Shown here one piece after another: positions 5,957 to 23,268 of a DNA stretch of 32,000 bases. The stretch is from Candidatus Saccharimonadota bacterium. GTDB taxonomy: Bacteria; Patescibacteriota; Gracilibacteria; UBA1369; 2-02-FULL-48-14. Position 1 is the stretch's first letter. Every line of letters starts with the position of its first letter. The notes below the pieces were generated by a model. That model saw only the letters and a program-made list of their open reading frames with translations, ran no database searches and had not been told where the DNA came from. The translations under genes were made by a program, and so were the position numbers. The stretch is from assembly GCA_041661045.1 (NCBI GenBank), contig JBAZVE010000001.1, positions 30,001 through 62,000 of the forward strand, given 5' to 3'.

Positions 5957-6037
5957 GTGAACCTCCTTTGGTATCGTTCGTTCCATGCTGTCATTTTAAC
6001 ACTTATTTTGGCTTCGGCAAGGGTTTGGGCTAAGCAT

Positions 6038-6066: not shown

Positions 6067-6090
6067 ATTGGATGTATTAAATGAAAATTT

Positions 6091-6378: not shown

Positions 6379-6420
6379 GGCTATTTTTGATCGTATTAGG
6401 GTTACTTTTAATTATTTTGT

Positions 6421-6627: not shown

Positions 6628-6631
6628 ACCT

Positions 6632-7333: not shown

Positions 7334-7389
7334 ACTCTAGAATCGTAGTAGGTCGCACGCGGATAATTTTGAACTTTTCTGATGTCCAC

Positions 7390-7749: not shown

Positions 7750-7793
7750 TCATTTTAACATTAATTGTCGAAAAGTCATCAACCTGTCTACAC

Positions 7794-8639
7794 TCAGCAA
7801 AAAACTGAAATCGCATATCCTTCAAGATAAATCTTCTTAGCGCTTCCAGCTCCTTCCATTCGTACGGTCAAATCCCCCATTCCTTCTAAACCAGGACCAC
7901 AACGGATAAGGAATTCTTGCTGACTGGATCTTAAGTGTTTTTGTAAGTATTCAGCGAGAGCTATGGAGCCCACACCGCAGACCAAATCTTCTTCATCTCG
8001 ATTCGGGAAATGACGCGCGTGAGCATCTAGAGCTTCAGTTTCTAATGCAAAAGGAAACAATCCTGTGATTGGATCCTCATCGGTTGAGTAACGAGTACAA
8101 AATGCTCGAATTGCCTGAAAATCTCTCTGAATTTTAAGCAAATTTTCGAGTGTTACAGGAATCATAAGTTTCATTTTCCCTGGAGCGCCTACGAGTTGAA
8201 TGGGCAGGGACTCAAGAATGTGATCAATATGAAGGATCTCAGCAAGTGCTTCTTTTGGAATTTCCAAATCTCTAAATCCTGGAAGGGACTGAGTTTGAGA
8301 AATTTTGCCATCAGGAAAGCGAGTCGCTTCAATGACTGTTCCTTTTGTGTTCACAAACTTTCCCTCCATCACTTGGCTTTGAGGCGGAAAGGCAAGATGT
8401 GCTGCCGCTAAGGTGGCATGCCCACAAGCGAAAGTTTCAGTCGCCCCGTTTTCATAGAGGAAACGGATTGGAATTGGCTTTTTTCTTGTATCAATAATGG
8501 CTGCTACTGTGCATGCAGACTCTCTCACTAGTCTCATGGCTTCCTCGGAATCAAGATCTGCATCAATAACTAGAGCTGGATTCCCCAACTTTGGATTTTT
8601 TGTGAAGGCCTTTACTGTGGTCGCTTGAATCTGTTGCAT
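7794..8639 (-). CDS. PhzF-family isomerase-like protein
   Basis: 281 aa. N-terminal VKAFTKNPKLGNPALV and overall length and pattern typical of the PhzF/YddE family. No competing ORF. Confidence 0.8.
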   Translation of the reverse strand: MQQIQATTVKAFTKNPKLGNPALVIDADLDSEEAMRLVRESACTVAAIIDTRKKPIPIRFLYENGATETFACGHATLAAAHLAFPPQSQVMEGKFVNTKGTVIEATRFPDGKISQTQSLPGFRDLEIPKEALAEILHIDHILESLPIQLVGAPGKMKLMIPVTLENLLKIQRDFQAIRAFCTRYSTDEDPITGLFPFALETEALDAHARHFPNRDEEDLVCGVGSIALAEYLQKHLRSSQQEFLIRCGPGLEGMGDLTVRMEGAGSAKKIYLEGYAISVFC

Positions 8640-8647
8640 GGAGTGAG

Positions 8648-8675
8648 TTTAGCAGATTTTTCGACATTTAATATC
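8648..8675. repeat. degenerate junction repeat R0
   Basis: tttagcagatttttcgacatttaatatc aligns with ttttagtagattttcgacttatttcttg at 10137-10164. Confidence 0.35.
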
Positions 8676-8693
8676 CACTCGTCTGCGACGAGG

Positions 8694-8707
8694 GTGGTGG
8701 GCCCGGC
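8694..8707. repeat. 14-bp copy of the tRNA(CAU) 3' end
   Basis: gtggtgggcccggc is identical to 17556-17569, which is the 3' end of the tRNA gene on the same strand. Confidence 0.5.
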
Positions 8708-8731
8708 CGTGCAAGAGACGAATTTGATTGA

Positions 8732-8917
8732 CTATTTCCTTAATGCCTCACTTCCTCCTAACGCTTTTTGAAGTCCTAACTGTCTTCTGACTTGATCTAC
8801 TTCACCACCTGTTCTTCCAAGAGCACCTGCCGAAATTATTAATTCAGGGATTCTAGGCTCAGGCTCCCGACTAATCATAGCAGCTAAGCTTTCCAGTCTT
8901 GTTGGCCCTCCTGGCAT
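8732..8917 (-). CDS. small hypothetical protein (61 aa), cassette 1
   Basis: ORF 31 nt downstream of a strong promoter (8949-8978) and bounded by repeat elements. No motif recognised. Confidence 0.4.
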   Translation of the reverse strand: MPGGPTRLESLAAMISREPEPRIPELIISAGALGRTGGEVDQVRRQLGLQKALGGSEALRK

Positions 8918-8948
8918 AATATTTTGGTTAAGTTATTATCAAGGTAAG

Positions 8949-8978
8949 ATATTACATCATTTCTTCACATCCTGTCAA
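8949..8978 (-). promoter_or_regulatory. sigma70-like promoter (minus strand)
   Basis: On the minus strand: TTGACA (reverse complement of 8973-8978), an 18-nt spacer, then TAATAT (reverse complement of 8949-8954). Confidence 0.5.
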
Positions 8979-8990
8979 TATTTGTGCGTG

Positions 8991-9025
8991 TGGTCACACT
9001 AGTCGCTCGACTTATTTTTTGTTGG
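8991..9025. repeat. junction repeat R1
   Basis: tggtcacactagtcgctcgacttattttttgttgg. It ends 1 nt before the stop codon of the 9026-9574 ORF. Confidence 0.8.
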
Positions 9026-9574
9026 TTATGAAGCTGTGGCTCCTCTTGACCCCTGAGCTAATTTCCCTTCTAGGATGGCTAATAATGCCTGCGTTCTCCT
9101 GATGTCACCCGCCATGCTAATCAGGCCCTCGTTGCGTCCACTACTTAATGAAGTACCTTCTTGAAATTCTGGAAGGACCCTCCATGCTCTATATCCCTCA
9201 ACAGTAGCTACTTGCCATCCAGAAGATGCTAAAGGTCTTTGCAGATTAACACCTAGCGTATCTCCCCTACTAATTAGTTCAACCTCCGTCCATGGGAAGT
9301 CCCCGGCGTATGTAGTTTGTACAAGCAAGCGGGTCTGTCCGCCTTCACCCTGTTGACCGTGCTGAGCTAAGAGCCTCTGAGCCCTAGTTCGATTGCTATC
9401 AATAAGCTCTTCCAAACCTCCATTCATGCCATTGCTGCTCTCTAAGAAAGCCTCGTCACCCTTCCTCATTCTACTTTCCTCTTCATCTTCTAAGGCCTCT
9501 GTTGCTTCGCTGTCTAAGAGTCCACCTCCATCATACACTGCTCTGAGCCTAGGGAATGGGGATTCTGTTCTCAT
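9026..9574 (-). CDS. hypothetical protein (182 aa), cassette 2
   Basis: Clean ORF bounded by R1 and R2. No motif recognised. Confidence 0.55.
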   Translation of the reverse strand: MRTESPFPRLRAVYDGGGLLDSEATEALEDEEESRMRKGDEAFLESSNGMNGGLEELIDSNRTRAQRLLAQHGQQGEGGQTRLLVQTTYAGDFPWTEVELISRGDTLGVNLQRPLASSGWQVATVEGYRAWRVLPEFQEGTSLSSGRNEGLISMAGDIRRTQALLAILEGKLAQGSRGATAS

Positions 9575-9626
9575 TTTTAAGGAGTTATTGGTTGGTAGGT
9601 AAACTTACCATACGAAAATTGGATTT

Positions 9627-9673
9627 AGCAAACTATTAAAAATTTAATAGTGGTGGGCCTCGACTTATTTTTC
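9627..9673. repeat. junction R2: exact copy of the tRNA(CAU) flank and 3' end, fused to the repeat core
   Basis: 9631-9659 (aactattaaaaatttaatagtggtgggcc) is identical to 17537-17565. It is followed by the core cctcgacttattttt (9658-9672). Confidence 0.85.
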
Positions 9674-10097
9674 AATAATTATCAAAGCCAGATTCACCAA
9701 AAACAGTTTTCTTGGCAAACCTTAGCACATCTTCAAAAGGAGACATGTTGCTGATACTTAGTCCTTCAACCTTGCAAGCTTTTATACCTCCAATAGAAAG
9801 GCTTATCTGAATGTTAAGAAACTCGGTTTTCTTGAAGCTACAGTTCTCAAAGTTACAGCCAACAAGTGCAGATTCTAAAAAAATACAATTATTGAAAGTG
9901 CAATCATTAAAAATTCCGCTTGCAAAATCCCCTCCAAGAATCAAACAGTTTTCAAAAACTCTACCCATAAAATCGCTGTCCATTACATCTCCACTTCCTA
10001 AGCCTCCTGCATAATTTGTAGTTCTCAAGTCGAAAAAACCAGTGAAAGTTTCTTCACTTCTATAAACCCGATCAAATTCTTCTAAGTTTTTTGTCAT
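9672..10097 (-). CDS. pentapeptide-repeat protein (141 aa), cassette 3
   Basis: Tandem 5-residue periodicity: CTFNN CIFLE SALVG CNFEN CSFKK TEFLN. Confidence 0.75.
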   Translation of the reverse strand: MTKNLEEFDRVYRSEETFTGFFDLRTTNYAGGLGSGDVMDSDFMGRVFENCLILGGDFASGIFNDCTFNNCIFLESALVGCNFENCSFKKTEFLNIQISLSIGGIKACKVEGLSISNMSPFEDVLRFAKKTVFGESGFDNY

Positions 10098-10148
10098 ATT
10101 AAAAAATGCAGTTTTACTTTAGCAAACTTTCTGCGTTTTAGTAGATTT

Positions 10149-10178
10149 TCGACTTATTTCTTGGTAGTGATTCGAGTG
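10149..10178. repeat. junction repeat R3
   Basis: tcgacttatttcttggtagtgattcgagtg. The right arm GTGATTCGAGTG is shared with R5 and R8. Confidence 0.7.
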
Positions 10179-10224
10179 AAAGTTTGAACTGGGGGCTAAT
10201 GTAGACAGGAGTATAGTGCTTTGA

Positions 10225-10253
10225 TTGACATGGCTTACTGTATGTAGTATTGT
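10225..10253 (+). promoter_or_regulatory. cassette-internal promoter
   Basis: TTGACA (10225-10230), a 17-nt spacer, then TATTGT (10248-10253). The same elements are conserved at 15429-15457 in the paralogous cassette. Confidence 0.55.
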
Positions 10254-10274
10254 ATACCACTGTAACAGATTGAT

Positions 10275-10910
10275 ATGCCTATATCATCAAAAGTTGAAGA
10301 GGGCGTCGACTATGAGCCAGGGTTCCCTGAAGATTTACGCATTGAAGAGCTCTTCCTATTGGTAGATTCTTGGACAGAGGCTCTTCGTAAGGCGTTGATC
10401 TCTTTAGGTTACAATCCCTTTACAGGAACCAGAGAGCAAAAACCTGAGTACGCAGATCACTTTGAAGGAAGAACTGTTTTGCCAGATGGTAGAGAAGTAA
10501 GGGCCTATTTTATGACTGTTGGAAAGTTCCATGATGGTCAAAGGGTAGCAAATGACCGCTTGGAACTCAGTATAACTCCGGTAAGAGAAGATCAGCATGG
10601 CATCAGCACTGTTTCGATGGGTGAAAATCTTAGATTAGAAGAGGTTAGACTCCTCTTGGGTATACCAAGCCATCACACTAAATGGGTGACCCCTTTCTAT
10701 GCCAGATCCAGGGATACAAAGGATCCTAGAGATTATACCTTTGACGAGCAAAGAGTTTATATCCAGTATGCTCGTTTGCTAAAACAAATCTTAGATCTGC
10801 ATTTCCAACATTCTCTGGGAAGAGTAGCAGAAGACTCTACAGATGTGACAAGCGCGACCGTGACACCGCGTCTTTTAGAAGCTTCAGAAGTTATAGAGGA
10901 AAAAAATTAA
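10275..10910 (+). CDS. hypothetical protein (211 aa), cassette 4; paralog of 15479-16102
   Basis: MPISSKVEEGVDYEPGFPEDL... aligns end to end with the 207-aa product of 15479-16102. No motif recognised. Confidence 0.7.
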   Translation: MPISSKVEEGVDYEPGFPEDLRIEELFLLVDSWTEALRKALISLGYNPFTGTREQKPEYADHFEGRTVLPDGREVRAYFMTVGKFHDGQRVANDRLELSITPVREDQHGISTVSMGENLRLEEVRLLLGIPSHHTKWVTPFYARSRDTKDPRDYTFDEQRVYIQYARLLKQILDLHFQHSLGRVAEDSTDVTSATVTPRLLEASEVIEEKN

Positions 10911-10925
10911 GCAGCCTCAAGTTTT

Positions 10926-10957
10926 GTCACAATTTCCCTCGACTTATTTTTTGGTGG
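10926..10957. repeat. junction repeat R4
   Basis: gtcacaatttccctcgacttattttttggtgg. It supplies the last codons and the TAA stop of the 10944-11456 ORF. Confidence 0.75.
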
Positions 10958-11456
10958 CTCTCAATAGAGTAATCCCTACATCTATTATGTAGACTATGCT
11001 CAGGACTGACAGCCCCAAAGTTAGAAGACCCATTGTATCTATCATTTCAACTCTTAAGTTATCCCAATTTGTGTTGCCTGCTTCCATTAGGCCTATGATT
11101 GTAGAATTGAAATCATTTTTTATAAAAAGCAAGGTGGGCCAAGCACCAATAAGGATTCCTGAGAATAGATAAAGCCATTTTTGTGAAGAATTACTGGATG
11201 TATTGTTTTTTGTTTTTCCTGTTACAAAAAGCCAGCGTTTTTTGCCGTCCAAATGGTCCATAGAAGCGTGGAGCATCTCATACTGACCTGTTTGTAACTG
11301 ATTATTCAAATTCTCAAAGCTATCACCCCCCTCATGGCCGATACAATATGTTTGAATCCCATAAATAATTCGACTCTTGTGCCAAGAAAGATAAAGGACC
11401 AAAAGAGTGATGCAGTTCACAATCAAAGCGATAAGACTAAGAATGGAATCAGGCAT
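10944..11456 (-). CDS. small integral membrane protein (170 aa, ~3 TM), cassette 5
   Basis: Hydrophobic segments ILSLIALIVNCITLLVLYLSW, WLYLFSGILIGAWPTLLFI and LLTLGLSVLSIVYIIDVGITLL. Confidence 0.65.
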   Translation of the reverse strand: MPDSILSLIALIVNCITLLVLYLSWHKSRIIYGIQTYCIGHEGGDSFENLNNQLQTGQYEMLHASMDHLDGKKRWLFVTGKTKNNTSSNSSQKWLYLFSGILIGAWPTLLFIKNDFNSTIIGLMEAGNTNWDNLRVEMIDTMGLLTLGLSVLSIVYIIDVGITLLRATKK

Positions 11457-11487
11457 GTAAGAACTGTGTTAGTAGATAAGCCTATAA

Positions 11488-11496
11488 ATTATACCA
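11488..11496 (-). promoter_or_regulatory. extended -10 element TGgTATAAT (minus strand)
   Basis: The reverse complement of attatacca is TGGTATAAT, 31 nt upstream of the ATG at 11456. The same attataccag string recurs at 12437-12446. Confidence 0.45.
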
Positions 11497-11528
11497 GTGC
11501 TATAGAGTCTTGAAATACATCTTGGAAT

Positions 11529-11590
11529 GCTGCACTTTGTGCAGTATGGTCACACTAGTTCCTCGATTTATTTTTTGGTGGTGATTCGAG
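11529..11590. repeat. junction repeat R5 (hairpin module, core and right arm)
   Basis: gCTGCACtttGTGCAGtatggtcacactagttcctcgatttattttttggtggtgattcgag. Confidence 0.85.
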
Positions 11591-11597
11591 TAAAAAA

Positions 11598-12410
11598 TCA
11601 TAAGATCAGTTCTCCTTCCGTATTAAAAAGAGCTACATTTTCAAAAACCGATCTTATAAACGCTACCTCATCTTTGTCTTCAGCTAATTTTGGTGGCAAA
11701 ATAATTCCTGATATAAAGTTCCCAGGTATACCGCACAAAATTGAAGATAACCTTTGCCCTTCGGGTGAATTCGGGTCATACGGCAATTGATTTATAATCC
11801 CTTTCATTTCTTCTCTCCCCTCAGCGTTATATGGATCCATATGTAGAAGTTCTTTCAATTCAGCAATGTTAGGGTCAATTAGAATTGCTACTTGATCATT
11901 CGTTCTACTGTTTTTGTTTGGCAAAAAAGTGCGTTCCATTTTTGAACTTTTCATTATAAGAGAGCCATCAGGACGCCGTTTTTCATCTGGCACATGGTAC
12001 CAATCCACATAATCCTTTACCGAGGTATCGTGCGGTATTTTATAAAAATCTGCACAGAAATGTGTTTCACTATCTTCAGGTATACCTATCAATTCTCCTG
12101 ATAACACCCCATTTGCTTGCAGAGCTTGGATTTTCTCTCTTGAATAAGATGTTCCGTGAACAAGTGTTCCCGCTACAAGTGGAGTTAAGCCAGCTTGAAT
12201 ACGTATTTGCAAAGGATTTGGAACCTTTAAGGTACTTAATCTTTGAAATAGACCCCATTGTTTTCTTACCTTTGTAAGCTCTTCATCGTTCAACTCCTTC
12301 TCGAGAATCATAGTATCTGGAAGAGGCAATCCAGCTGCCTCCTTCACTTCTGGACTAGTTGCTTCTCTTGCCACCTCCTCTTCAGGTTTTTCTAGGTCTA
12401 AATCTCTCAT
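11598..12410 (-). CDS. hypothetical protein (270 aa), cassette 6; weak H-Y-E ADP-ribosyltransferase-like pattern
   Basis: Clean ORF. LVHGTSYSREKIQALQANGVL resembles the HG[ST]...I...G[LV] NAD-binding motif of the PARP, diphtheria toxin and Tpt1 fold. HFCADFY and DEVAFI are possible second and third motifs. Confidence 0.6.
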   Translation of the reverse strand: MRDLDLEKPEEEVAREATSPEVKEAAGLPLPDTMILEKELNDEELTKVRKQWGLFQRLSTLKVPNPLQIRIQAGLTPLVAGTLVHGTSYSREKIQALQANGVLSGELIGIPEDSETHFCADFYKIPHDTSVKDYVDWYHVPDEKRRPDGSLIMKSSKMERTFLPNKNSRTNDQVAILIDPNIAELKELLHMDPYNAEGREEMKGIINQLPYDPNSPEGQRLSSILCGIPGNFISGIILPPKLAEDKDEVAFIRSVFENVALFNTEGELIL

Positions 12411-12436
12411 TAATTTATCTGATTATAAATCAGCTC

Positions 12437-12445
12437 ATTATACCA
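12437..12445 (-). promoter_or_regulatory. extended -10 element TGgTATAAT (minus strand)
   Basis: The reverse complement of attatacca is TGGTATAAT, 26 nt upstream of the ATG at 12410. Confidence 0.45.
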
Positions 12446-12510
12446 GATTTGCAAAAAACTAACCAGTGATGAGGTTTTAGCAAGACATTTCTGTACAGTA
12501 AAAACCTTGA

Positions 12511-12547
12511 ATGGTCACACTAGTTCCTCGACTTATTTTTTTGGCGG
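12511..12547. repeat. junction repeat R6
   Basis: atggtcacactagttcctcgacttatttttttggcgg. An 8-bp palindrome, ctgtacag, lies at 12491-12498, where R5 and R7 carry their hairpin. Confidence 0.85.
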
Positions 12548-12578
12548 TAGTACGGATGAAAATCGCTCAATAGACTAA

Positions 12579-13763
12579 TCAGACTGACTTACTGGCTACT
12601 TTTTTACGCATGATTGGCAAGACTATCAAGAAGCCTACGAGCATTAATGCCGTCAAAACGATGAGGGGGATTTTTTGACTCTCCAAGGAATCGCTGGACC
12701 ATCCGTATAAAATGGGCCCTATGATCACGGCCGCCTGAGAAACAAAAGAGTAAAAACCGAATTCCGTGCCTGAATTTTCTGGCTTTACCACTCGAGCATA
12801 GTGGGCTCTTAGTATCGACTGGCTATTCCCTACCGCTAACCCACCCAATATTGAAATCAAAATGACCGTTGGTGCGTAGGGTGGGAGCAAAAGAAGCACA
12901 AAGGCCACCAGCATACAGATCATGGAGCTTGAAAATATAGTCGCCATTTTCCCTTTCGCAGCTAAGCGACCGCCTATTAGCGTAGCCGGAAAGGCTACCA
13001 GTTGAATGAGCAAAAGCATGTATCCGATTTGCATTGAAGTCAGTCCCAGTTCTTTTGAGCAATACAAAGCAAAGAAGAGTATGAAAACGGTGATGCACTC
13101 GCTGATGATCCAAAACCCCAAAAGGAACTGTATTTTTTGTTTACGAGTTAAAGTTACTGATTCCTCGTAGCTCGCCGGTAAAGCACTGAAAGACTTCAGA
13201 CCTTTGAGTGCTAATCCTGAGAAAAATGTATAAAAAATGCTGACGCTCAAAAAAACAGGCAGTGAAAATTCCGAACTTTGGCTTTGTATGATGAGTACAA
13301 TGAGCAGACTTAGGATTCCTCCGACATAACCGAAACCCCACGCGAAACCGCTGTAGCGATAGGATTCGGGCCCTTGAGAAATATGAGGCAATACAGAATC
13401 TGAAAGCGATAGTGAGGCAATGAAAATGGCCTGCGTGAGGATAAAAAGTGGAGCAACCAGTGTCTGGGAAAATGAAGTGGCTAGCCCCAACACAATCATT
13501 CCCACGGAGCTTAGAATGATTGTCCACTTTAAGAATCTATATTTTCCATATTTATCAGAAATTTTTCCCAACCACAAAGCTAGTAAGATCCCTAAAAAGG
13601 TCGCGATGGCATTTGCCGTCCCCCACGCCGCAAGCGGATATCCAAAATTGATGAGTACGGTCGCAAAATAAGCTGGGAGAAGAAACGCCCCATAGGAAAG
13701 TATGTAGCTGGAATTTGCAAAATCGTAATAAGCCCAACTCCGTACTATGCTGTTTTTGTTCAT
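12579..13763 (-). CDS. MFS transporter (Atg22/UMF1-like), cassette 7
   Basis: 394 aa and highly hydrophobic, with about 10-12 TM segments. The N-terminal WAYYDFANSSY signature is typical of the UMF1/Atg22 MFS subfamily. Confidence 0.8.
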   Translation of the reverse strand: MNKNSIVRSWAYYDFANSSYILSYGAFLLPAYFATVLINFGYPLAAWGTANAIATFLGILLALWLGKISDKYGKYRFLKWTIILSSVGMIVLGLATSFSQTLVAPLFILTQAIFIASLSLSDSVLPHISQGPESYRYSGFAWGFGYVGGILSLLIVLIIQSQSSEFSLPVFLSVSIFYTFFSGLALKGLKSFSALPASYEESVTLTRKQKIQFLLGFWIISECITVFILFFALYCSKELGLTSMQIGYMLLLIQLVAFPATLIGGRLAAKGKMATIFSSSMICMLVAFVLLLLPPYAPTVILISILGGLAVGNSQSILRAHYARVVKPENSGTEFGFYSFVSQAAVIIGPILYGWSSDSLESQKIPLIVLTALMLVGFLIVLPIMRKKVASKSV

Positions 13764-14578
13764 GGTGCCAGGTTAAACTGTTGTGTATAAACCTCTGGCC
13801 TTCTTAGCTTAAAATAAGGCTTTTGATCCCTAGTTCTAGTGGCTAGTTCCATTTCAATATCTGCATAAACTATCTGTTCTTGATCGTTCGCCTTTACGAT
13901 CACACCACCGTTTGGATCTACAACAATGGATTCCCCACAAAAGTCCATTTTCCCTTCAAGGCCCACTCGATTGCACATCGCAATGAAAACAGAATTTTGC
14001 ATTGCAGGGACTCGAAGTTCCCATTCAAACATTTCAAGAGGTTCGTCCTTGGTATTGGCCGTTGGGATAATGATGATTTGTGCTCCCTGTAAAGCACACG
14101 AGCGAATGCTTTCTGGGTAGTGCCTATCAAAACAAATCACCACACCCACTTTTCCAATGGCCGTGTTGTATACCTTAAAGCCGCTTTCAGATGGGTTGTA
14201 GTAATCCTGCTCGTAGAAACCCTCTGCTTGAACAATATGAACCATTTTAGAAATACCTAAAATTTCCCCATTTGAATCGATCAATGGAGAGGCATCAAAC
14301 TTATCCGCGCCTTCGTTTAGGTAAAAATTTGGCACTGCCACCATCTTCAGCTCTTTACACTTTTCCTGTAGTGATTTAATCACCTGGTCTTCGATTCCTA
14401 TTTCGTAGGATGAGGTGTCTTTGCCTTTATACTGAGGAAAGAATGGGTAAAACTGGAGTTCTGGGAAACAAATGAGGTTTGCTCCATTTTTAGCTGCTTC
14501 CTCCATTGTTGAGATAGCTTTTTCAATATTTCCTTGAATGTTCTCTCCGAGTTTTAGTTGAGCTAAAGCGATTTTCAT
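13760..14578 (-). CDS. carbon-nitrogen hydrolase (nitrilase superfamily), cassette 7
   Basis: Candidate Glu-Lys-Cys triad contexts CFPELQ, ...HYRK-like region and VVICFDRHYPE. Overlaps the downstream MFS gene by 4 nt (ATGA), indicating an operon. Confidence 0.85.
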   Translation of the reverse strand: MKIALAQLKLGENIQGNIEKAISTMEEAAKNGANLICFPELQFYPFFPQYKGKDTSSYEIGIEDQVIKSLQEKCKELKMVAVPNFYLNEGADKFDASPLIDSNGEILGISKMVHIVQAEGFYEQDYYNPSESGFKVYNTAIGKVGVVICFDRHYPESIRSCALQGAQIIIIPTANTKDEPLEMFEWELRVPAMQNSVFIAMCNRVGLEGKMDFCGESIVVDPNGGVIVKANDQEQIVYADIEMELATRTRDQKPYFKLRRPEVYTQQFNLAP

Positions 14579-14628
14579 GATTCAAAAATACCAAAAACTA
14601 AGGAATTTGCCAGACCAAGATTTTTTAA

Positions 14629-14678
14629 GCTGCACTTCGTGCAGTATGGTCACACAAGTCCCTCGATTTATTTAATTG
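14629..14678. repeat. junction repeat R7 (hairpin module and core)
   Basis: gCTGCACttcGTGCAGtatggtcacacaagtccctcgatttatttaattg. Confidence 0.8.
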
Positions 14679-14725
14679 TTATCAAATTAAAGTTAATGTA
14701 TAATAGTTATAACTAATTAATAACT
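14676..14725 (+). promoter_or_regulatory. phd-doc promoter with palindromic operator candidates
   Basis: TTGTTA (14676-14681), a 17-nt spacer, then TATAAT (14699-14704). This is followed by the perfect 10-bp palindrome AGTTATAACT (14705-14714) and a further ATAACT (14720-14725) abutting the ATG. Confidence 0.5.
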
Positions 14726-14968
14726 ATGTTCTATAAACTTATAAAAGTAGGCAATTCAGTCGGAGTCACTTTACCAAGAAAACTACTTGACCTGATGCAG
14801 CTTGAGCAGGGTGAAGATGTTATGATCGAACCCAATATGGAAACTCGAACTATAGTCATCAAACCTGTTTCTGTGGCGAAAGAACAGGTGAATAAATCGG
14901 TCATTGAAGGGACCGCAAAGTTTATCAAACGCTATCCAAAAGCACTTAAAAACTTGGCTGGAAAATGA
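14726..14968 (+). CDS. AbrB/SpoVT-fold antitoxin (Phd-type partner of Doc), cassette 8
   Basis: KVGNSVGVTLPRKLLDLMQLEQGEDV is a swapped-hairpin AbrB/MazE motif. Overlaps the doc gene by 4 nt. Confidence 0.8.
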   Translation: MFYKLIKVGNSVGVTLPRKLLDLMQLEQGEDVMIEPNMETRTIVIKPVSVAKEQVNKSVIEGTAKFIKRYPKALKNLAGK

Positions 14969-15348
14969 AATACTTGAGCGTTCAAGATCTGATCTATATC
15001 AACCAAGCTGTGGTGGATGCATCTGGTGGCACTATTGGCGTGCGTGATGTGGGCCTAATAGACTCCGCAGTGAATAGGCCACGCGCCACTTTTGGAGACG
15101 ATGACTTGTATCCAAGCTTATTTGATAAAGCTGCTGCACTTTTTCATTCAGTAATTTTCAACCATGCTTTCTTAGATGGGAACAAAAGAACGGCCGTTGC
15201 TTCAGCTGCCCAACTTTTATACCTCAATGGATTTGAGCTTATCACCAGCGAAAAAGAACTTGAATCTTTTACCATGAAAATCGTTGACGAAAGATTGGGG
15301 TTGGATGAAATTGCAAAGTGGCTAGAAAAATATTCTATTGAATGTTAG
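14965..15348 (+). CDS. doc: Doc (death-on-curing) Fic-fold toxin
   Basis: The Fic/Doc active-site motif HAFLDGNKRTA is present. 127 aa, typical Doc length. Confidence 0.9.
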   Translation: MKYLSVQDLIYINQAVVDASGGTIGVRDVGLIDSAVNRPRATFGDDDLYPSLFDKAAALFHSVIFNHAFLDGNKRTAVASAAQLLYLNGFELITSEKELESFTMKIVDERLGLDEIAKWLEKYSIEC

Positions 15349-15382
15349 ACCATCAACTTATTTTTTAGTGGTTATTCGAGTG
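15348..15382. repeat. junction repeat R8
   Basis: gaccatcaacttattttttagtggttattcgagtg. The ~100 nt that follow are conserved with 10179-10274. Confidence 0.65.
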
Positions 15383-15428
15383 AAAATTTGGACTGAGGAC
15401 TAATGTAGACAGGAGTATGGCGCTTTGG

Positions 15429-15457
15429 TTGACATGGCTTACCATATGTAGTATTGT
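15429..15457 (+). promoter_or_regulatory. cassette-internal promoter (paralog of 10225-10253)
   Basis: TTGACA (15429-15434), a 17-nt spacer, then TATTGT (15452-15457). Confidence 0.55.
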
Positions 15458-15478
15458 ATGCCACTGTAACAGATCAAT

Positions 15479-16102
15479 ATGCCTATATCATCAAAAGCTG
15501 AAGAGGGCGTCGACTATAAACTAGGGTTTCCTGAAGATTTATCCATTAAAGAGCTCATCCCGTTGGTAGATTCTTGGACAGAGGCTCTTCGTGAGGCATT
15601 GGTATCTTTAGGTCACAATCCCTTCACTGGATCACGAGAGCAAAGCCCTGAGTATCCTGATCACTTTGAAGGAAGAACTGTTTTGCCAGATGGTAAAACA
15701 ATAAGTGCCTATCTTGTGAGCCATTCAAAGTTCCATGATGCTGAACGGGTGGCGCGTGACCGCTTGGAACTCAGTATAACTCCAGCAAGAGAAGACCAGT
15801 ATGGCATCTTCACTGTTTCGAGGGGTGAAAGGCTTAGATTACATGAGGTTCGAATCCTCTTGGGTAAACCAAGCCGTCCCACTAAATGGATGCCCTCTGT
15901 CTTTCTTGGGCTTATAAGGAATCGTAGTGATTATGAGGAGGAAACAGCTTATCTTCAGTATGCTCGTGCGCTAAAACAAATCTTAGATCTGCATTTCCAA
16001 AGTTCCCTCGAAAGATCAGAAGGAGCCTCTACAGAAGTGACAACGGCGGACATTACGCTGGGTCTTTTAGAAGCTTCAGAAGTTGGAGTGGGGGAAAAAT
16101 AA
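15479..16102 (+). CDS. hypothetical protein (207 aa), cassette 9; paralog of 10275-10910
   Basis: MPISSKAEEGVDYKLGFPEDL... is collinear with the 211-aa paralog. Confidence 0.7.
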   Translation: MPISSKAEEGVDYKLGFPEDLSIKELIPLVDSWTEALREALVSLGHNPFTGSREQSPEYPDHFEGRTVLPDGKTISAYLVSHSKFHDAERVARDRLELSITPAREDQYGIFTVSRGERLRLHEVRILLGKPSRPTKWMPSVFLGLIRNRSDYEEETAYLQYARALKQILDLHFQSSLERSEGASTEVTTADITLGLLEASEVGVGEK

Positions 16103-16115
16103 GTAGCCTGAAATT

Positions 16116-16157
16116 TGGCCACACCAGTCCGTGACTTATTTTTTGGTGGTTATCAAG
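16116..16157. repeat. junction repeat R9
   Basis: tggccacaccagtccgtgacttattttttggtggttatcaag. Confidence 0.75.
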
Positions 16158-16172
16158 ACAAGCATTTAGTTT

Positions 16173-17486
16173 TCAAGTGTCAAAATTGATCACCGTAGAT
16201 GTTAACCAATTTGGATCATAAATATCCTTGACTAAGGCCATGTGTGAATTATCCGCTTGTGACCAAATATCCTCTAAAAAATCTATAAATTTAGTGATGT
16301 TTCTTTTGGAAAAGATATTTGTATTAAACTTTTCTTTCTCTGATTTTAATGGCTCACGCCCAAACAAGTTATCATTCTCTTTATCGGTAAAGACTGCGTC
16401 ACAATAAGGTAAAAAGGTCGATAAAGATTCAGAATCACTTATCATACCTCTGCTTGGATTGTTCCCACCCTCCTTGAGTTTTCTTGCCAAAGATGCAAAA
16501 TATGTGGCTGAGAGCCTAACACAGGGAACATTCAATATGGTCTTGGAATTAAGGCAATCCATTATTGTTGAAAGGATTTTGTCCTCACCTATCGAATGTG
16601 CATTTGCAATTTTGTATAACTTTTCAAATAGGTCTACAGCTGGTGGTTTCGACATTTTTTCTAAGGCCTTACCTTCCATTAATTTTTTTATGTACTTTAC
16701 ATATCGACCGAACCACCTTAACTTTTCTTTACCAAAATCTTGCGCCTCCTCCCACACTAAATCATCAAAACTTTTTTTATCCTCCCTCCACCTATCATAA
16801 ACATGATCTGTTAAATTTGTGTGTGAATCATCGCGTACTTTTCTCACTGATGACACTCCTTCTTCAGTTAGAGGAAAATCCAAGCGAAAGTCGTCTGTTG
16901 CTTTTGCTCTGAAATACCAACAATTTGGATCCATATCAAAACAGTCCTGCTCATTTAGAAATATCGTTGCATCCTGTTCTCCCTTAAGATAATTTTCAAA
17001 ATGTTTGGCTACTTGTGCATCTTGAACAAGGTTGTGATGCTTAAAAGCAACTTTATTCGCCAGTATTTTTTGAAAAAACTGTAAGTCATTAAATTCTGCT
17101 GCCGTTATTGATTCTTCAATATGAATATCTGAATAAGGACAAATAATCAGATTGTATTTAATAAGCTTAAGCAGTTTTTCAAAAACTTGCATCCAATACT
17201 TATCTTCCATGGCTTTTTTATGTTTTTTACTTTTTGGATTAGCTACAAACATCAAATTGCTCAAAACAAACTGATCAAGGTATATAATTTTCTTTTTTAT
17301 TTCGGGTAACTTACTTTGTTCGTGGAACCGACAGTTTGCACACAATCTAATTAAAACACTTATTCGGGTGTCTGGAAGTGGCATGACCGAAAATACGCCA
17401 TATTTATTACCTTTACATTTTGGGCATAGCTTGAATGGACTCGATAAATGGTCATGAATATCCATATCGCTAGAGTTTTGCGTCAC
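16173..17486 (-). CDS. hypothetical protein with N-terminal C4 zinc ribbon (437 aa), cassette 10 (next to the tRNA)
   Basis: CPKCKGNKYG...CANCRF at the N-terminus. GTG start as listed; ATG alternative at 17463-17465. The rest is unrecognised (IYLDQFVLSNL...ICPYSDIHIEESI). Confidence 0.65.
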   Translation of the reverse strand: MTQNSSDMDIHDHLSSPFKLCPKCKGNKYGVFSVMPLPDTRISVLIRLCANCRFHEQSKLPEIKKKIIYLDQFVLSNLMFVANPKSKKHKKAMEDKYWMQVFEKLLKLIKYNLIICPYSDIHIEESITAAEFNDLQFFQKILANKVAFKHHNLVQDAQVAKHFENYLKGEQDATIFLNEQDCFDMDPNCWYFRAKATDDFRLDFPLTEEGVSSVRKVRDDSHTNLTDHVYDRWREDKKSFDDLVWEEAQDFGKEKLRWFGRYVKYIKKLMEGKALEKMSKPPAVDLFEKLYKIANAHSIGEDKILSTIMDCLNSKTILNVPCVRLSATYFASLARKLKEGGNNPSRGMISDSESLSTFLPYCDAVFTDKENDNLFGREPLKSEKEKFNTNIFSKRNITKFIDFLEDIWSQADNSHMALVKDIYDPNWLTSTVINFDT

Positions 17487-17527
17487 TTTGATAGATTCTT
17501 ACCAGCAAACTCCCCCAACTTTTCCGT

Positions 17528-17565
17528 ACTTTCTCGAACTATTAAAAATTTAATAGTGGTGGGCC
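17528..17565. repeat. tRNA-proximal sequence resembling the junction repeat (candidate att site)
   Basis: actttctcgaactattaaaaatttaatagtggtgggcc compared with R6 agttcctcgacttatttttttggcgg. Both share a TTYCTCGA(A)CTnATT block, an A/T run and TGGYGG. Confidence 0.55.
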
Positions 17566-17633
17566 CGGCTGGACTTGAACCAGCGACCAAGAAGTTATGA
17601 GCCTCCTGCTCTAACCAACTGAGCTACGGGCCC
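17557..17633 (-). tRNA. tRNA with CAU anticodon, probably tRNA-Ile2 (lysidine type) rather than elongator Met; CCA encoded
   Basis: Reverse complement GGGCCCGTAGCTCAGTTGGTTAGAGCAGGAGGCTCATAACTTCTTGGTCGCTGGTTCAAGTCCAGCCGGGCCCACCA. The G1:C72 pair excludes an initiator. C4/C5 in the acceptor stem and the TGGTCGCTGGTTCAAGTCCAGC arm closely resemble E. coli ileX as I recall it. Confidence 0.85.
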
Positions 17634-17775
17634 GTAATGAGGTGAGGAAGAGTTTACTCTTCCGAAAGTGAATGGAGGGCTTTGTAGACCCCGAAGGGTG
17701 CTACGGGCCCGACATGTAAAAGGACAAAGCTAAAAGGCGCCCTCAATCTAAAGAAAAGCGTGGATTTTGGCAAAC

Positions 17776-21694: not shown

Positions 21695-22890
21695 AAGACC
21701 GCTTCCCCATCTTTCAAAATCATCCGGATTTGGTGTATTTGGACAGTGCTTCCACCACGCAACGCCTGGATGATTCTTTGCTCGCGGAACAAGAATATTA
21801 TTTGGATTTTAATGCCAATGTGCACCGCGGGCTCTACCCCATGGCGGAGATGGCCACGGAGCGCTACGAAGCCGTGCGCACCGTTGCACGAAGATTCTTG
21901 AATGCGGGCAAGGATGGCGAAATACTTTTCACACGAGGCACTACGGAGGGTCTTAATATTGTGGCGCAGTGCTGGGGACGCAAGTTTTTGAAAAAAGGAG
22001 ATGAAGTGGTGCTGAGTGTTTTGGAACACCATTCCAACTTGGTGCCTTGGCAAATGATTGCGAAAGAAGTCGGAGCTGTTTTGAAATTTTGCCCCATTCT
22101 GAGCACGGGGAATTTGGATTACAAAGCCCTTGAAAAATTGATTGGGAAGCGCACCAAAATGGTGAGCATCACCGGGCTTTCCAATACTCTTGGAACGGTT
22201 ATTGACCTTTCCATTGTGAGTCGATTGGCCAAAAAAGTTGGTGCAAAATTATGCATCGATGCAGCTCAACTTGCCGCGCACTTCCCCATTGATGTGCAAG
22301 ACATTGATGCCGACTTCTTGGCTTTTTCAAGCCATAAAATTTACGGACCCACCGGAGCCGGCGTGCTCTACGCCAAACGAGAGCTTTTGGAGGCCATGGA
22401 CCCTTGGCTTGGCGGCGGAGATATGATTCGTGAAGTGCATGAAGAATTTTCGACTTGGAACGATTTACCCTGGAAGTTTGAGGCCGGCACTCCGAACATT
22501 GCGCAGGTGCTGGGCATGGGTGCCGCCATGCAGTTCTTAATGGAACTTGGAAAAAATACTCTCATGAAACACGACCGTGAGATGCAAGAATACACCTTTA
22601 AAAAACTCAATGAACTCCCCTTTATTACGGTCTATGGCCCCAAGGCTTTCGACCAGCATCGCGGCTCTATTTCTTTCACCATGCACGGAGTCCATCCTCA
22701 CGATATTGCGGCCATTTTGGGTGAAGAAGGTATTTGCGTCCGGGCCGGTCACCACTGCACCATGCCGCTCATGAAAGCGCTCTGCCTTGTTTCCACCGTG
22801 CGGGTGAGCTTTGGAATCTATAATACGAAAGAAGATGTGGAGGCCTTAGCGAAGGGTCTTAAAAAAGTAGCGGAGGTTTTTAAACTATAG
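21679..22890 (+). CDS. sufS: cysteine desulfurase SufS (class II aminotransferase V)
   Basis: VYLDSASTTQ at the N-terminus, PLP-lysine context FSSHKIYGPTGAG and active-site RAGHHC. Confidence 0.92.
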   Translation: MPLQIKDRFPIFQNHPDLVYLDSASTTQRLDDSLLAEQEYYLDFNANVHRGLYPMAEMATERYEAVRTVARRFLNAGKDGEILFTRGTTEGLNIVAQCWGRKFLKKGDEVVLSVLEHHSNLVPWQMIAKEVGAVLKFCPILSTGNLDYKALEKLIGKRTKMVSITGLSNTLGTVIDLSIVSRLAKKVGAKLCIDAAQLAAHFPIDVQDIDADFLAFSSHKIYGPTGAGVLYAKRELLEAMDPWLGGGDMIREVHEEFSTWNDLPWKFEAGTPNIAQVLGMGAAMQFLMELGKNTLMKHDREMQEYTFKKLNELPFITVYGPKAFDQHRGSISFTMHGVHPHDIAAILGEEGICVRAGHHCTMPLMKALCLVSTVRVSFGIYNTKEDVEALAKGLKKVAEVFKL

Positions 22891-23268
22891 CTGTGGCTCA
22901 TATCTCAGTTCTTTTGGTGTTTGTTTTTTTAAGTTTTTGTCTAAAGTCCAAAGCGGTGATTCCGTTTGTATGGCTGTAAACAAAATGGTCGAGTCCACCA
23001 GGCCCAAGCCCTGTGCAATCCACTTCTTCTTACTGGACTCCTCCGCCGCCTTTAAGAGTAGCTCTGTGATCTCCGGCTTGTTGAGGTTATCGTAATAGGC
23101 TCTGATCATTTTGACCTCCCCACCACTCAGGGCTCCCTGCATCAACTCGGCAAAAATGATGTCTAGCGTGAGCACTTCATTGTGGTGCAGCAAATACAGT
23201 AAATATTTGTAGCAAGGCTCTTTCCCTTTCAAAAATTCAATCCAGACTGAGGTGTCTACCAAAATCAT
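22885..23268 (-). CDS. vapC: PIN-domain toxin VapC
   Basis: MILVDTSVWIEFL carries the first PIN acidic residue, followed by ...DSTIL. 127 aa. 4-nt overlap with the upstream antitoxin. Confidence 0.85.
   Translation of the reverse strand: MILVDTSVWIEFLKGKEPCYKYLLYLLHHNEVLTLDIIFAELMQGALSGGEVKMIRAYYDNLNKPEITELLLKAAEESSKKKWIAQGLGLVDSTILFTAIQTESPLWTLDKNLKKQTPKELRYEPQL

Follow-up and report, generated by a model that had tools for sequence, protein, structure and literature searches.

In the SCC and pseudo-SCC composite islands of staphylococci, the Ccr large serine recombinases act at the 3' end of the rlmH/orfX gene; many units have no recombinase of their own and are served in trans, and new units enter beside the conserved gene. 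Xer-dependent modules include the IMEX elements at dif and the pdif modules of Acinetobacter plasmids. The genomes of CPR bacteria are tiny, these bacteria rely on other organisms, and their ways of gaining and exchanging genes are poorly known. Integrase and replication genes are carried by tycheposons themselves, which are flanked by partial tRNAs of about 40 nt and have targets that include tRNA-Met(CAU) and tRNA-Ala(GGC) (Hackl et al., bioRxiv 10.1101/2020.12.28.424599). In the literature, no description was found of an array in Peribacteria or CPR bacteria such as the one reported here.

The locus belongs to an uncultivated Peribacteria (CPR) bacterium in which single-gene cassettes are stacked beside a tRNA gene, with a conserved recombination-type repeat between the units. 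Nine junction repeats were found in the window (the whole 32-kb stretch of DNA that was analysed), all on one strand between 8988 and 16170 and none elsewhere, and they bound units of one or two genes (Table 1). The sufCBDS genes lie on the side of tRNA-Met(CAU) that faces away from the array in every genome, and the ACCA terminus of this tRNA reads TGGT on the plus strand (17557-17560). The spacing between tRNA-Ala and tRNA-Met is 15.4 kb in the window compared with 2.9 kb in L013, where the interval contains four genes and no junction repeats. The G+C content of the cassettes is 0.37-0.43, against 0.45-0.53 for the flanking core genes. An Rfam scan of the window returned two tRNAs and no further RNA families. 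The tRNA-Met(CAU) gene was named from its anticodon, and tRNA-Ile2 is possible.

Table 1. Positions of the junction repeats, relics, tRNA genes and cassette genes in the window
Feature	Position	Strand	Description
tRNA-Ala(GGC)	2112-2188	-	Far limit of the variable interval (ARAGORN and locus comparison)
Decayed junction	7368-7400	+	ATAATTTTGAACTTTTCTGATGTCCACCTAAGT, after the methyltransferase gene 6584-7333
Relic of older tRNA-proximal site	8651-8707	+	Arm-like TTTAGCAGATTTTTCGAC…, GC hairpin CTCGTCTGCGACGAG, 13 nt of the tRNA-Met 3' end TGGTGGGCCCGGC (8695-8707)
Junction R1	8991-9030	+	TGGT and core, without left arm
Cassette cargo, overall span	9026-16102	mixed	
182-aa protein	9026-9574	-	No assigned function
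Junction R2, hybrid	9624-9685	+	Left arm with the same A/T hairpin as the tRNA-proximal arm, 9 nt of true tRNA 3' end TGGTGGGCC (9651-9659), right part TCGACTTATTTTT
Pentapeptide-repeat protein	9672-10097	-	
Junction R3	10119-10178	+	Short left arm TTAGCAAACTTTCTGCG, then diverged core
211-aa protein	10275-10910	+	No assigned function
Junction R4	10922-10964	+	From repeat and profile searches
170-aa protein	10944-11456	-	No assigned function
Junction R5	11529-11590	+	GC hairpin, TGGT, core near consensus
270-aa protein	11598-12410	-	No assigned function
Junction R6	12488-12555	+	Diverged left arm TTTAGCAAGACATTTCTGTACAGTAAAAACCTTGAA, then TGGT and core; nhmmer E = 2.6e-11 from model position 27
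MFS transporter with C-N hydrolase	12579-14578	-	
Junction R7	14629-14683	+	GC hairpin GCTGCACTTCGTGCAGTA, then TGGTCACACAAGTCCCTCGATTTATTT
MazE/Doc toxin-antitoxin pair	14726-15348	+	
Junction R8	15346-15382	+	Diverged, without left arm
207-aa protein	15479-16102	+	Paralogue of the 211-aa protein
Junction R9	16111-16156	+	Diverged core TTGGCCACACCAGTCCGTGACTTATTTTTTGGTGGTTATC
First cassette	16173-17486	-	437-aa protein with N-terminal CxxC…CxxC motif
tRNA-proximal (left) arm	17503-17556	+	Four phased (A/T)ACT(T)n units at about 10-nt spacing, ending in A/T hairpin CTATTAAAAATTTAATAG (17539-17556)
tRNA-Met(CAU)	17557-17633	-	ARAGORN; Rfam RF00005, 70.5 bits; comparison of site types

The array resembles integrons (IntI, attI, attC) in being mostly single-gene, in its miscellaneous cargo with toxin-antitoxin pairs, in the separate site borne by each cassette, in its duplicated and shuffled cassettes, and in a fixed insertion point at one end, the polarity being taken from the L012 genome. 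In both, the sites have very little sequence in common (G|TT in integrons, TGGT here), and, as in CALINs (attC clusters without an integrase), no recombinase adjoins the array. The locus differs from integrons in that no intI is present at the insertion site, the repeats are non-palindromic and non-folding compared with the hairpins of attC, a tRNA gene end takes the place of attI, the cassettes have both orientations, and many of them seem to come with an upstream arm of their own. With the Xer modules, which are mobilised by a host enzyme, it shares recombinase-less gene modules between conserved short sites; unlike them, it has a tRNA end as its target and direct repeats rather than inverted pairs, and no dif-like 11-6-11 inverted structure or XerCD site was found in the junction consensus.

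Nine other genomes have the same junction repeat downstream of their orthologous tRNA-Met(CAU)-sufCB locus, and the array recurs in at least 10 Peribacteria genomes, with one to eight or more units in the relatives. The first cassette differs in each of the nine, a comparison of orthologous loci that an earlier reading of the window alone (the preliminary description) had proposed as a check. An exact-pattern genome scan placed the repeat in a single stretch per genome, beside tRNA-Met(CAU) in three; in L002 the 8 kb examined contain no tRNA. L006 was obtained from a metagenome scan for the core, as one 1-kb contig. Scans of viral contigs for the repeat were empty or gave a single chance match, in a GC-rich gene of a phage (L009), and distant SufC loci at 63-65% identity (L019, L020) have no adjoining tRNA-Met and no repeats. 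Cassettes turn over between genomes. The methyltransferase gene at 6584-7333 is also a cassette in L002 (4886-5604), with 82% nucleotide identity over 720 nt (window 6613-7332), and a cassette identity of 85% was found between L002 and L003; shared cassettes are thus at or above the level of the suf core genes, which are 73-75% identical.

Comparison of the related genomes (n = 10, with 22 repeat copies) divides the full junction into three parts, namely a left arm, TGGT and a conserved right arm or core of 40 nt (CACACtAGTyCCTCGACTTATTTTTTGGTGGTTAT). The left arm reads TAGCAAACTTTTCC-AACTTTTT-ATACTTTTT-GAACTTTTT, in which the A/T hairpin is optional, and an identical 35-nt core is present in L002, L004 and L006. 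Sites are of three types, distal, internal and tRNA-proximal. In arrays of one or two cassettes (L006, L004, L015 and L017) the distal junction is without a left arm and the proximal site has one. To the left of the distal TGGT each genome has unrelated sequence (GTGATTT, GGGGAAG, GAATAGG and GTTGAGGA), so that no more than TGGT can be shared. The same DNA-methylase cassette occurs in L002 (4039-4839) and L004 (2483-3278) at 74.7% nucleotide identity; the two copies are homologous as far as TGGT, after which L002 has the core and L004 the tRNA. Only TGGT is common to the distal, internal and proximal sites, so exchange probably takes place at the extreme 3' end of tRNA-Met(CAU), and from these alignments we infer that TGGT at 17557-17560 is the exchange point. 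The interval 2189-17556 is, in our judgement, probably an accretion island of small gene cassettes formed by site-specific insertion at that end of the tRNA gene.

The tRNA flank of the window aligns with the left arm of the junctions. Positions 17503-17556 are identical at 44 of 54 nt to the left arm of the L002 junction at 3579, a score reached in 0 of 5000 shuffles. An nhmmer left-arm profile built from the L002 junctions only matches the window at 17504-17550 (E = 5.6e-4) and also matches the other tRNA-proximal flanks (L004, 1.7e-11; L005, 8e-8; L006, 5e-5; L003, 0.012); with another profile, built from relatives only, the tRNA-proximal arm gave E = 0.0093. On these alignments 17503-17556 represents the first cassette's left arm, the tRNA 3' end takes the position of the core, and 17528-17569 is a hybrid arm-TGGT-tRNA site, not a diverged copy of the core. 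A passing remark in the preliminary description, that AGCAAACT to the left of R3 matches the tRNA flank, had therefore touched on real homology, as the E value of the left-arm profile indicates.

The main alignment of the preliminary description was another one, in which the flank was taken as a copy of the CTCGACTTATT…GGTGG block. The strings it quoted are all present (tRNA flank and 3' end at 17528-17569, R5 and R6 as quoted, agcaaactttctgcg at 10121-10135 and 'agcaaact' at 17504-17511), and the register is the wrong one. Local alignment of CTCGAACTATT…TGGTGG with CTCGACTTATT…GGTGG scored 13, compared with 11.0 +/- 2.1 for dinucleotide shuffles (p = 0.18), and the flank against the junction consensus gave p = 0.06. 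An nhmmer profile of R1-R9 matched the flank only at TAATAGTGGTGGGC (-0.4 bits, E = 34), below ten background matches. The CTCGA match is a coincidence restricted to the window, where 'CTCGAAC' corresponds to 'TTTGAAC' in relatives. On such an alignment the junction core TTCCTCGACTTATTTTTTGGTGG would be a diverged tRNA flank with its CCACCA end, and exchange would take place at the T-run/GGTGG on the right side, which we regard as unlikely. Besides the chance-level alignment in the window, this version predicts arm-core-tRNA at the proximal site and a distal site without a core, and the opposite was found in 8 of 8 arm-bearing proximal sites and in all distal sites examined. What speaks for it comes from other genomes: the proximal site and the right part of the junction share the exact 11-mer TTTTTTGGTGG in relatives (p about 0.003-0.01), a 26-column alignment TACTTCCTCAA..TTTTTTGGTGG is found in L003 (p = 6e-4), and the L012 recombinase element has CACTTTTTTTGGAGG in the equivalent arm. 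The shared 11-mer thus allows a fossil relationship of this kind, while the site logic places the exchange elsewhere.

That the cassette boundaries are att-type sites tied to the tRNA-Met 3' end is borne out by the site types and by the relatives; the homology offered for it in the preliminary description was at the level of chance. A plausible hand alignment in AT-rich DNA can in this way reach the right biology via the wrong homology. Derivation of the core from tRNA sequence was not detectable against the 3' 50 nt of the tRNA (p = 0.17-0.96). An idea of our own, that the core is the decayed 3' two-thirds of the tRNA (AAGTC as T-loop, CTCATAAC as anticodon loop), was rejected after global alignment against shuffles (p = 0.17-0.96).

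The structure of the repeat was also compared with known signals. On either strand, the fold of a typical junction is no more stable than that of shuffled sequence (z = 0.69 and 0.17). The 22-copy consensus has no dyad symmetry of the kind expected of serine-recombinase att half-sites, the best complementarity being 44%, and a GAACT…AGTTC pentamer pair was read around TGGT in some copies only. Scans for sigma-70 promoter and terminator consensus sequences found no enrichment at junctions and none at the cores. By reading of the sequence, minus-strand start codons follow the outer end of the left arm at a distance of a few to about 30 nt, and this end often reads TGnTAnnnT on that strand; hairpins abut TGGT in several copies. 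These features, together with a repeat length of 85-100 nt and 90-100% identity between genomes, favour a reading of the repeats as intergenic regulatory or insulating modules (promoter, UP-like A-tracts, terminator hairpins) that turn over by DNA uptake and RecA-dependent recombination with no dedicated recombinase. This is improbable, as homologous recombination fails for a first insertion that shares just TGGT (L006, L004, L015, L017), breakpoints exactly at TGGT are left unexplained, signatures of promoters or terminators are absent from the core, which is the most conserved block, the junctions show no enrichment of consensus sites, and the repeat is limited to one tRNA locus. Far less probable still is a non-autonomous transposable element (MITE/REP-like or of the IS200/IS605 type, targeting a tetranucleotide) scattered in a pre-existing variable region. 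The fixed TGGT tetranucleotide and the hairpins abutting the end in some copies do recall HUH-transposase elements, but the repeats have a single orientation, one locus per genome and always the same tRNA, lack terminal inverted repeats, target duplications or a stable fold (z = 0.2-0.7 for a typical copy), and no transposase was found in the window or in the relatives' loci examined. Unlike MITE/REP repeats, the window copies lie on one strand and the repeat forms one stretch per MAG, beside tRNA-Met.

Further probable traces of site-specific insertion at the tRNA 3' end lie within the window. The tRNA end with its flank (17537-17565) recurs at 9631-9659 in R2 as an exact direct repeat of 29 nt, unmentioned in the preliminary description, and we read R2 as a putative displaced former tRNA-proximal site. 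The extent of tRNA identity in R2, 9 nt, is that of the displaced site beside the serine-recombinase element of L012. In the relic at 8651-8707 the hairpin and GGTGGTGGGCC are closely like the native tRNA-Met trailer of L013. Sequence of the tRNA beyond TGGT is confined to these two relics (9 nt at 9651-9659 and 13 nt at 8695-8707), with displacement like that in L012; this is more than exchange at TGGT would transfer, and therefore at least two kinds of event are indicated. In R7 the promoter region of the MazE/Doc cassette stands in place of the right part. Left arms are degenerate or missing in most of the window junctions (R1, R4, R5 and R7-R9) and an age gradient among them is absent; the window array may therefore be old or inactive.

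Scattered partial tRNA 3' ends of this kind (8695-8707 and 9651-9659), a tRNA that seeds a hypervariable island, and new elements that push older ones outward are also features of tycheposons and Islander-type islands (PMC4383910). The 9- and 13-nt partial ends would suit an island made of decayed tandem elements of the tycheposon or prophage type that encoded their own integrases, with the junctions as leftover, functionless attL/attR scars, and so would the recombinase-bearing element of L012 and the documented tandem accretion of tycheposons with partial tRNAs (bioRxiv 10.1101/2020.12.28.424599). We consider this quite unlikely: scars should decay, whereas the 40-nt core is identical or almost identical between genomes whose suf genes are about 25% different; the units consist of single genes (0.5-1.4 kb) and contain no integrase fragments; and most junctions hold 4 nt of tRNA, not a partial tRNA of about 40 nt. 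In contrast to tycheposons, most units here have no recombinase, and their boundaries share just TGGT with the tRNA and have a conserved non-tRNA core.

In L012, a complete genome, a 5.75-kb element with a large serine recombinase is inserted exactly at the tRNA-Met site, and its insertion moved the old tRNA-proximal site 5.75 kb away. With the new element against the tRNA and the older proximal site displaced outward, L012 supports the proposal of the preliminary description that the tRNA-adjacent unit arrived last, which in the window may apply to the cassette at 16173-17486. The recombinase (527 aa) has Resolvase, Recombinase and Zn_ribbon_recom domains (78.7, 28.2 and 35.1 bits, against Pfam cut-offs of 23.3, 21.1 and 25.3), its PDB match is the TP901-1 integrase, and its gene reads into the tRNA 3' end. 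The element is flanked by TGGTGGGCC, and the displaced site consists of the left arm, TGGTGGGCC and element DNA; the attP of the element and the cassette junction are alike only in the CACTTTTTTTGGAGG motif and the tRNA core. No recombinase domain (Phage_integrase or other; Pfam, PHROGs and NCBIfam) was found in the window ORFs scanned (50-680 aa, including those of 437, 536, 203 and 270 aa), tblastn with the L012 recombinase gave no trace in the window, and no recombinase gene was found in the examined DNA of other junction-bearing loci. The cassettes examined contained no integrase fragments or transposase, and an element-encoded integrase, of the serine and not the tyrosine type, was present solely in the 5.75-kb element of L012. 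Neither excision products nor population variants were seen.

Like the SCC islands, the locus has units in tandem at a single position, where a conserved gene has its 3' end, with short direct att repeats between them; a large serine recombinase is present at the site in one relative, L012, and was not found in the window or in the other loci examined. Very short identity between partner sites (TGGT, and TGGTGGGCC flanking the L012 element) is a further likeness to composite islands formed by large serine recombinases, and the lack of convincing inverted half-sites around TGGT in the 22-copy consensus is a difference from them. The locus also departs from SCC in that the target is a tRNA 3' end and not a protein-coding gene, the units are mostly single-gene and of 0.5-1.4 kb, the host is a CPR bacterium, each unit has a conserved site of about 85-100 nt of which 4 nt match the target, and no recombinase is tied to the cassettes. 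An integron-like or SCC-like cassette array with a recombinase acting in trans is most likely. A large serine recombinase supplied in trans, as for ccr-less SCC elements, would be the most likely catalyst, a suggestion we hold with rather less than even confidence, because the exchange region is very short (4 nt, and 9 nt in some events) and an element with such an enzyme sits exactly there in L012. Canonical large serine recombinases are not known to recombine attP with a site that is already occupied (attR-type), which counts against this model.

In the mechanism that we propose, the mobile unit would carry an attP-like site made up of a variable left arm (phased ACTTTTT units, often ending in a hairpin), TGGT and the conserved 40-nt right arm; the left arm, judging from its position, may also serve as promoter for minus-strand cargo. 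Exchange with the terminal ACCA/TGGT of the tRNA would give (i) a distal site of chromosome, TGGT and core and (ii) a tRNA-proximal site of left arm, TGGT and tRNA, and further insertions at the tRNA would convert the boundaries between units into (iii) internal junctions of left arm, TGGT and core. The locus looks like a dedicated gene-capture site. More tentatively, it may represent an undescribed gene-capture system of Peribacteria, integron-like in its working and differently built, with the 3' ACCA of tRNA-Met(CAU) as insertion point, promoter-bearing single-gene cassettes that carry a non-palindromic site of about 40 nt and a phased A/T-tract arm, and a large serine recombinase supplied in trans from elsewhere or by larger elements such as that of L012. 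If a serine recombinase does act in trans, the locus would be a second, independent route to cassette arrays besides integrons, would offer a compact tRNA-end attB/attP pair for genome engineering, and would explain why MAG assemblies break at this tRNA-Met.

Across genomes the cargo includes DNA and small-molecule methyltransferases, toxin-antitoxin pairs, pentapeptide-repeat proteins, a transporter, a CBASS nucleotidyltransferase and many proteins of no assigned function, and is typical of flexible gene pools. One cassette is duplicated within the window (repeat families D1 and D2). The 437-aa protein of the first cassette has no Pfam or PHROGs match; its nearest homologue, 52% identical, lies in a different, unrelated island in which junction repeats are absent. 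An identical 437-aa protein is encoded on a 1616-nt contig whose assembly breaks at both repeats, and exact-protein look-ups led to short Logan contigs that end at the repeats.

The tRNA-Met(CAU) gene of the window has a 3' end that reads TGGTGGGCCCGG… on the plus strand, where it is preceded by …CCAGCAAACTCCCCCAACTTTTCCGTACTTTCTCGAACTATTAAAAATTTAATAG. The cassette junctions are marked by nine repeats (R1-R9, consensus TGGTCACACTAGTyCCTCGACTTATTTTTTGGTGGTTAT), which are absent elsewhere in the window and are separated by units of one or two genes in both orientations. The cargo comprises a pentapeptide-repeat protein, an MFS transporter with a C-N hydrolase, a MazE/Doc pair, two paralogous proteins of unknown function (211 and 207 aa) and several unknowns, and the cassette DNA is lower in G+C than the flanking genes. 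The paralogues are encoded by R3-R4 and R8-R9, which are duplicates of one whole cassette, including both junctions. The MazE-type antitoxin and Fic/Doc toxin form one cassette, whose own promoter-like site has replaced the right part of R7; at the related locus L015 the sole unit is a Doc cassette in decay. No recombinase domain was detected in any ORF of the window.

Positions and properties of features in the window and at related loci
Locus	Feature	Position	Detail
Window	clpB, tRNA-Ala(GGC)	left side	
Window	tRNA-Met(CAU)	17557-17633, minus	Rfam 70.5 bits
Window	sufC, sufB, sufD, sufS	right of tRNA-Met	
Window	R1-R9	8988-16170, plus	
Window	R3-R4; R8-R9 cassettes	10142-10964; 15346-16156	78-86 % identity
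Window	MazE/Doc cassette	14726-15348	
Window	Promoter-like site of MazE/Doc cassette	14676-14704	TTGTTA-17-TATAAT
Window	Junction left arm	17503-17556	
Window	Left-arm profile match	17504-17550	E=5.6e-4
L003	Left-arm profile match	tRNA flank	E=0.012
L004	Left-arm profile match	tRNA flank	E=1.7e-11
L005	Left-arm profile match	tRNA flank	E=8e-8
L006	Left-arm profile match	tRNA flank	E=5e-5
L004	Distal site		GGGGAAG/TGGTCACAC
L006	Distal site		GTGATTT/TGGTCACAC
L015	Distal site		GAATAGG/GGTCACAC
L017	Distal site		GTTGAGGA/TGGTCACAC
Window	First unit		437-aa unknown
L003	First unit		101-aa protein
L004	First unit		N6/N4 DNA methylase
L005	First unit		SAM methyltransferase
L006	First unit		roughly 190-aa unknown
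L012	First unit		recombinase element
L015	First unit		decayed Doc module
L017	First unit		~110-nt mini-unit
L018	First unit		256-aa protein
L002; L004	Shared cassette	4039-4839; 2483-3278	74.7 % identical
Window	Cassette shared with L002	6613-7332	82 % identity
L002	Cassette shared with L003	7393-7973	85 % identity
Window	tRNA copy at R2	9631-9659	29 nt, exact
Window	tRNA relic	8651-8707	
Window	Decayed junction	7368-7400	
Window; L012	10-mer CGTGCAAGAG	8708-8717; 9427-9436	
L010	Island with homologue of first-cassette protein	2299-12265	homologue: 52 % identity
Window	tRNA-Ala and tRNA-Met shared 41 nt	2163-2203; 17608-17648	
Window	tRNA-Met 5' end and second copy	17623-17634; 17700-17711	GCTACGGGCCCG
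L015	Group I intron	9258-9581	RF00028, 65.1 bits (cut-off 50)
L015	SufB with intein	10783-13326	Intein_splicing, LAGLIDADG_3
L006	CAACTTTTTGGTGGGC	~903, minus	15-16 nt
Window; L013	PIN-domain toxin gene	22885-23268; 15271-15872	

In the preliminary description the junction repeat had been aligned with the tRNA flank as its diverged copy, and the test proposed there was run with an nhmmer profile made from R1-R9. The profile recovered 9/9 repeats (E 2e-14 to 9e-8); the tRNA flank matched it over TAATAGTGGTGGGC only (-0.4 bits, E=34) and was outranked by ten background matches. Local alignment in the original register scored 13 against 11.0 +/- 2.1 for dinucleotide shuffles (p=0.18), and the flank compared with the junction consensus gave p=0.06, so that the similarity is at chance level and the alignment as written fails by the criterion which that description had set for it. 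The shared CTCGA is a coincidence, because CTCGAAC in the window corresponds to TTTGAAC in relatives, and no significant similarity was found between the core (the conserved part right of TGGT), supposed to derive from the tRNA end, and the 3' 50 nt of the tRNA. That register would put the exchange at the second T-run/GGTGG, a placement that is excluded because it predicts a distribution of the core opposite to that seen. TTTTTTGGTGG occurs exactly in the right part of the junction and in the proximal sites of relatives, and may be left over from a proximal site of ancestral type, which would be the grain of truth in the alignment. The likeness of the AGCAAACT motif left of R3 to the tRNA flank proved meaningful, and the flank is a junction left arm.

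Relatives were sampled by an exact-pattern scan with one genome per species, in which four Candidatus Peribacteria MAGs proved to carry the repeat. The L002 array holds at least eight copies, and at L003, L004 and L005 it is found a short way downstream of the tRNA-Met(CAU) 3' end, with sufC and sufB following the tRNA as in the window. Five further genomes were added from a metagenome contig (L006) and through SufC homologues (L012, L015/L016, L017 and L018). The core is identical over 35 nt in three genomes, and 22 copies from ten genomes gave a strong consensus lying wholly right of TGGT. L013 has the same tRNA-Ala…tRNA-Met-sufC synteny as the window and no repeats in the 2.9 kb between the two tRNAs, and two more distant SufC loci had neither tRNA nor repeat.

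The full junction in relatives consists of a left arm, TGGT and the core, in that order. The left arm reads TAGCAAACTTTTCC-AACTTTTT-ATACTTTTT-GAACTTTTT and is closed in some copies by a hairpin, CTATTAAAAATTTTAATAG. In most genomes it forms the tRNA-proximal flank, running directly into TGGT/GGGCC… of the tRNA, the exceptions being L012 and L018, where a plus-strand ORF adjoins the tRNA in its place. A left-arm profile built from L002 junctions alone matched the tRNA flanks of the window and four relatives, and the window flank was identical at 44/54 positions, hairpin included, to the arm of L002 junction 3579, a score reached by 0/5000 shuffles. On this profile and identity, the tRNA flank of the window is a junction left arm, beside which the tRNA 3' end takes the place of the core. 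The outer end of the arm, as read from the sequence, is often TGnTAnnnT just upstream of start codons, and the arm may also be a promoter for minus-strand cargo.

The sites are of three types. Distal ends of short arrays consist of unrelated chromosome, TGGT and core, internal junctions of left arm, TGGT and core, and proximal sites of left arm, TGGT and tRNA. This is exactly the outcome expected of successive attP x attB events at TGGT, in which the attP of each unit would be arm-TGGT-core and each new unit would enter adjoining the tRNA. The breakpoint at TGGT is visible in the cassette common to L002 and L004, where homology stops at TGGT; beyond that point L002 has the core and L004 the tRNA.

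The polarity of entry is seen in L012, a complete genome (CP064962.1), in which a large serine recombinase of 527 aa is encoded by a gene that runs into the 3' end of tRNA-Met. The protein has Resolvase, Recombinase and Zn_ribbon_recom domains, each above the Pfam cut-off, and matches the TP901-1 integrase (PDB). Its element is 5.75 kb long, also encodes a CBASS-type SMODS/AGS_C protein, and is bracketed by TGGTGGGCC. The far end holds what was once the tRNA-proximal site (left arm, TTTTTT, TGGTGGGCC, element DNA), beyond which lie two ordinary junctions, and this is direct evidence that new units arrive beside the tRNA and displace older sites away from it. Two relics in the window are comparable to this displaced site. 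At R2, an exact copy of tRNA end and flank is fused directly to the repeat, so that the right part of the junction is preceded by arm, hairpin and a 9-nt piece of the tRNA (TGGTGGGCC), as long as the one in L012. The other relic joins arm-like sequence to a GC hairpin and 13 tRNA nucleotides, and resembles the native tRNA trailer of L013. Together with a decayed junction after a gene found as a cassette in L002, these relics show that much of 2189-17556 is accreted material. Directly to the right of the 13-nt relic is the 10-mer CGTGCAAGAG, which recurs in L012 at the 3' end of the recombinase gene, just left of the tRNA. The two copies thus stand on opposite sides of the tRNA sequence, and the match may be due to chance or to rearrangement of a recombinase-element end. 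No recombinase remnant was found in the window by tblastn.

A classical tyrosine integrase needs a 6-8-bp identical overlap and is less suited to these sites because the common region is only 4 nt (9 nt in some events), from which we infer that a serine recombinase or integron-like single-strand exchange fits better. The sole recombinase seen at the tRNA-Met site is the large serine recombinase. Against such an enzyme, however, the attP of the L012 element is unlike the cassette junction save for the core and CACTTTTTTTGGAGG motif, no dyad symmetry is evident in the junction, and occupied sites are not used by canonical serine integrases, although staphylococcal SCC arrays do accumulate at occupied sites.

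Cassettes turn over at the tRNA. In the comparison that the preliminary description had proposed for orthologous tRNA(CAU) loci, the tRNA-adjacent unit differs in every genome listed. Cassettes that recur in other arrays and positions are as similar as, or more similar than, core genes (suf, 73-75 %), and the window and L002 both have pentapeptide cassettes, L002 two of them. The nearest homologue of the 437-aa first-cassette protein belongs to a ~9-kb island at L010 that also encodes a Fic protein and a helicase of 1507 aa. A duplicated piece of the nadC (QRPTase) gene, from its 3' part, flanks this island, which is different in kind but carries the same cargo family.

The locus resembles integrons/CALINs in function but has neither IntI nor a folding attC. 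Its architecture recalls that of SCC-type composite islands, and also that of tRNA-seeded islands such as tycheposons, the latter differing in their long partial-tRNA repeats and element-encoded integrase in the units. It lacks defining features of each of the three, and no description of such a locus was found in literature searches on Peribacteria, CPR and integrons.

The 41 nt shared by tRNA-Ala(GGC) and tRNA-Met(CAU) comprise the tRNA 5' part and 16 nt upstream. The second copy of the tRNA-Met 5' end, 77 nt further upstream, is followed by ACATGTAAAAGGACA, the flank directly adjoining the tRNA in relatives, an arrangement that suggests either an insertion of ~77 nt at the tRNA-Met 5' end or a conversion there from the tRNA-Ala locus. 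At L015, L016 and L017 a group I intron splits the tRNA-Met(CAU) gene in the anticodon loop, and for this reason ARAGORN misses it. A copy of the motif of the tRNA-proximal site, CAACTTTTTGGTGGGC, lies in L006 within the coding region of the distal flanking ORF, and may be a secondary target or a coincidence. In short-read assemblies (L001, L003, L005, L007 and the P0002 contig) the sequence is broken off at the tRNA or junction repeats, examples being a 1616-nt contig with the first cassette alone and one starting inside the tRNA, so that MAGs will often lack or misjoin the island. On the conserved side of the tRNA, a PIN-domain toxin gene lies among suf and nifU genes and is paired with an antitoxin in L013, and SufB of L015 carries an intein (847 aa in place of 469 aa).
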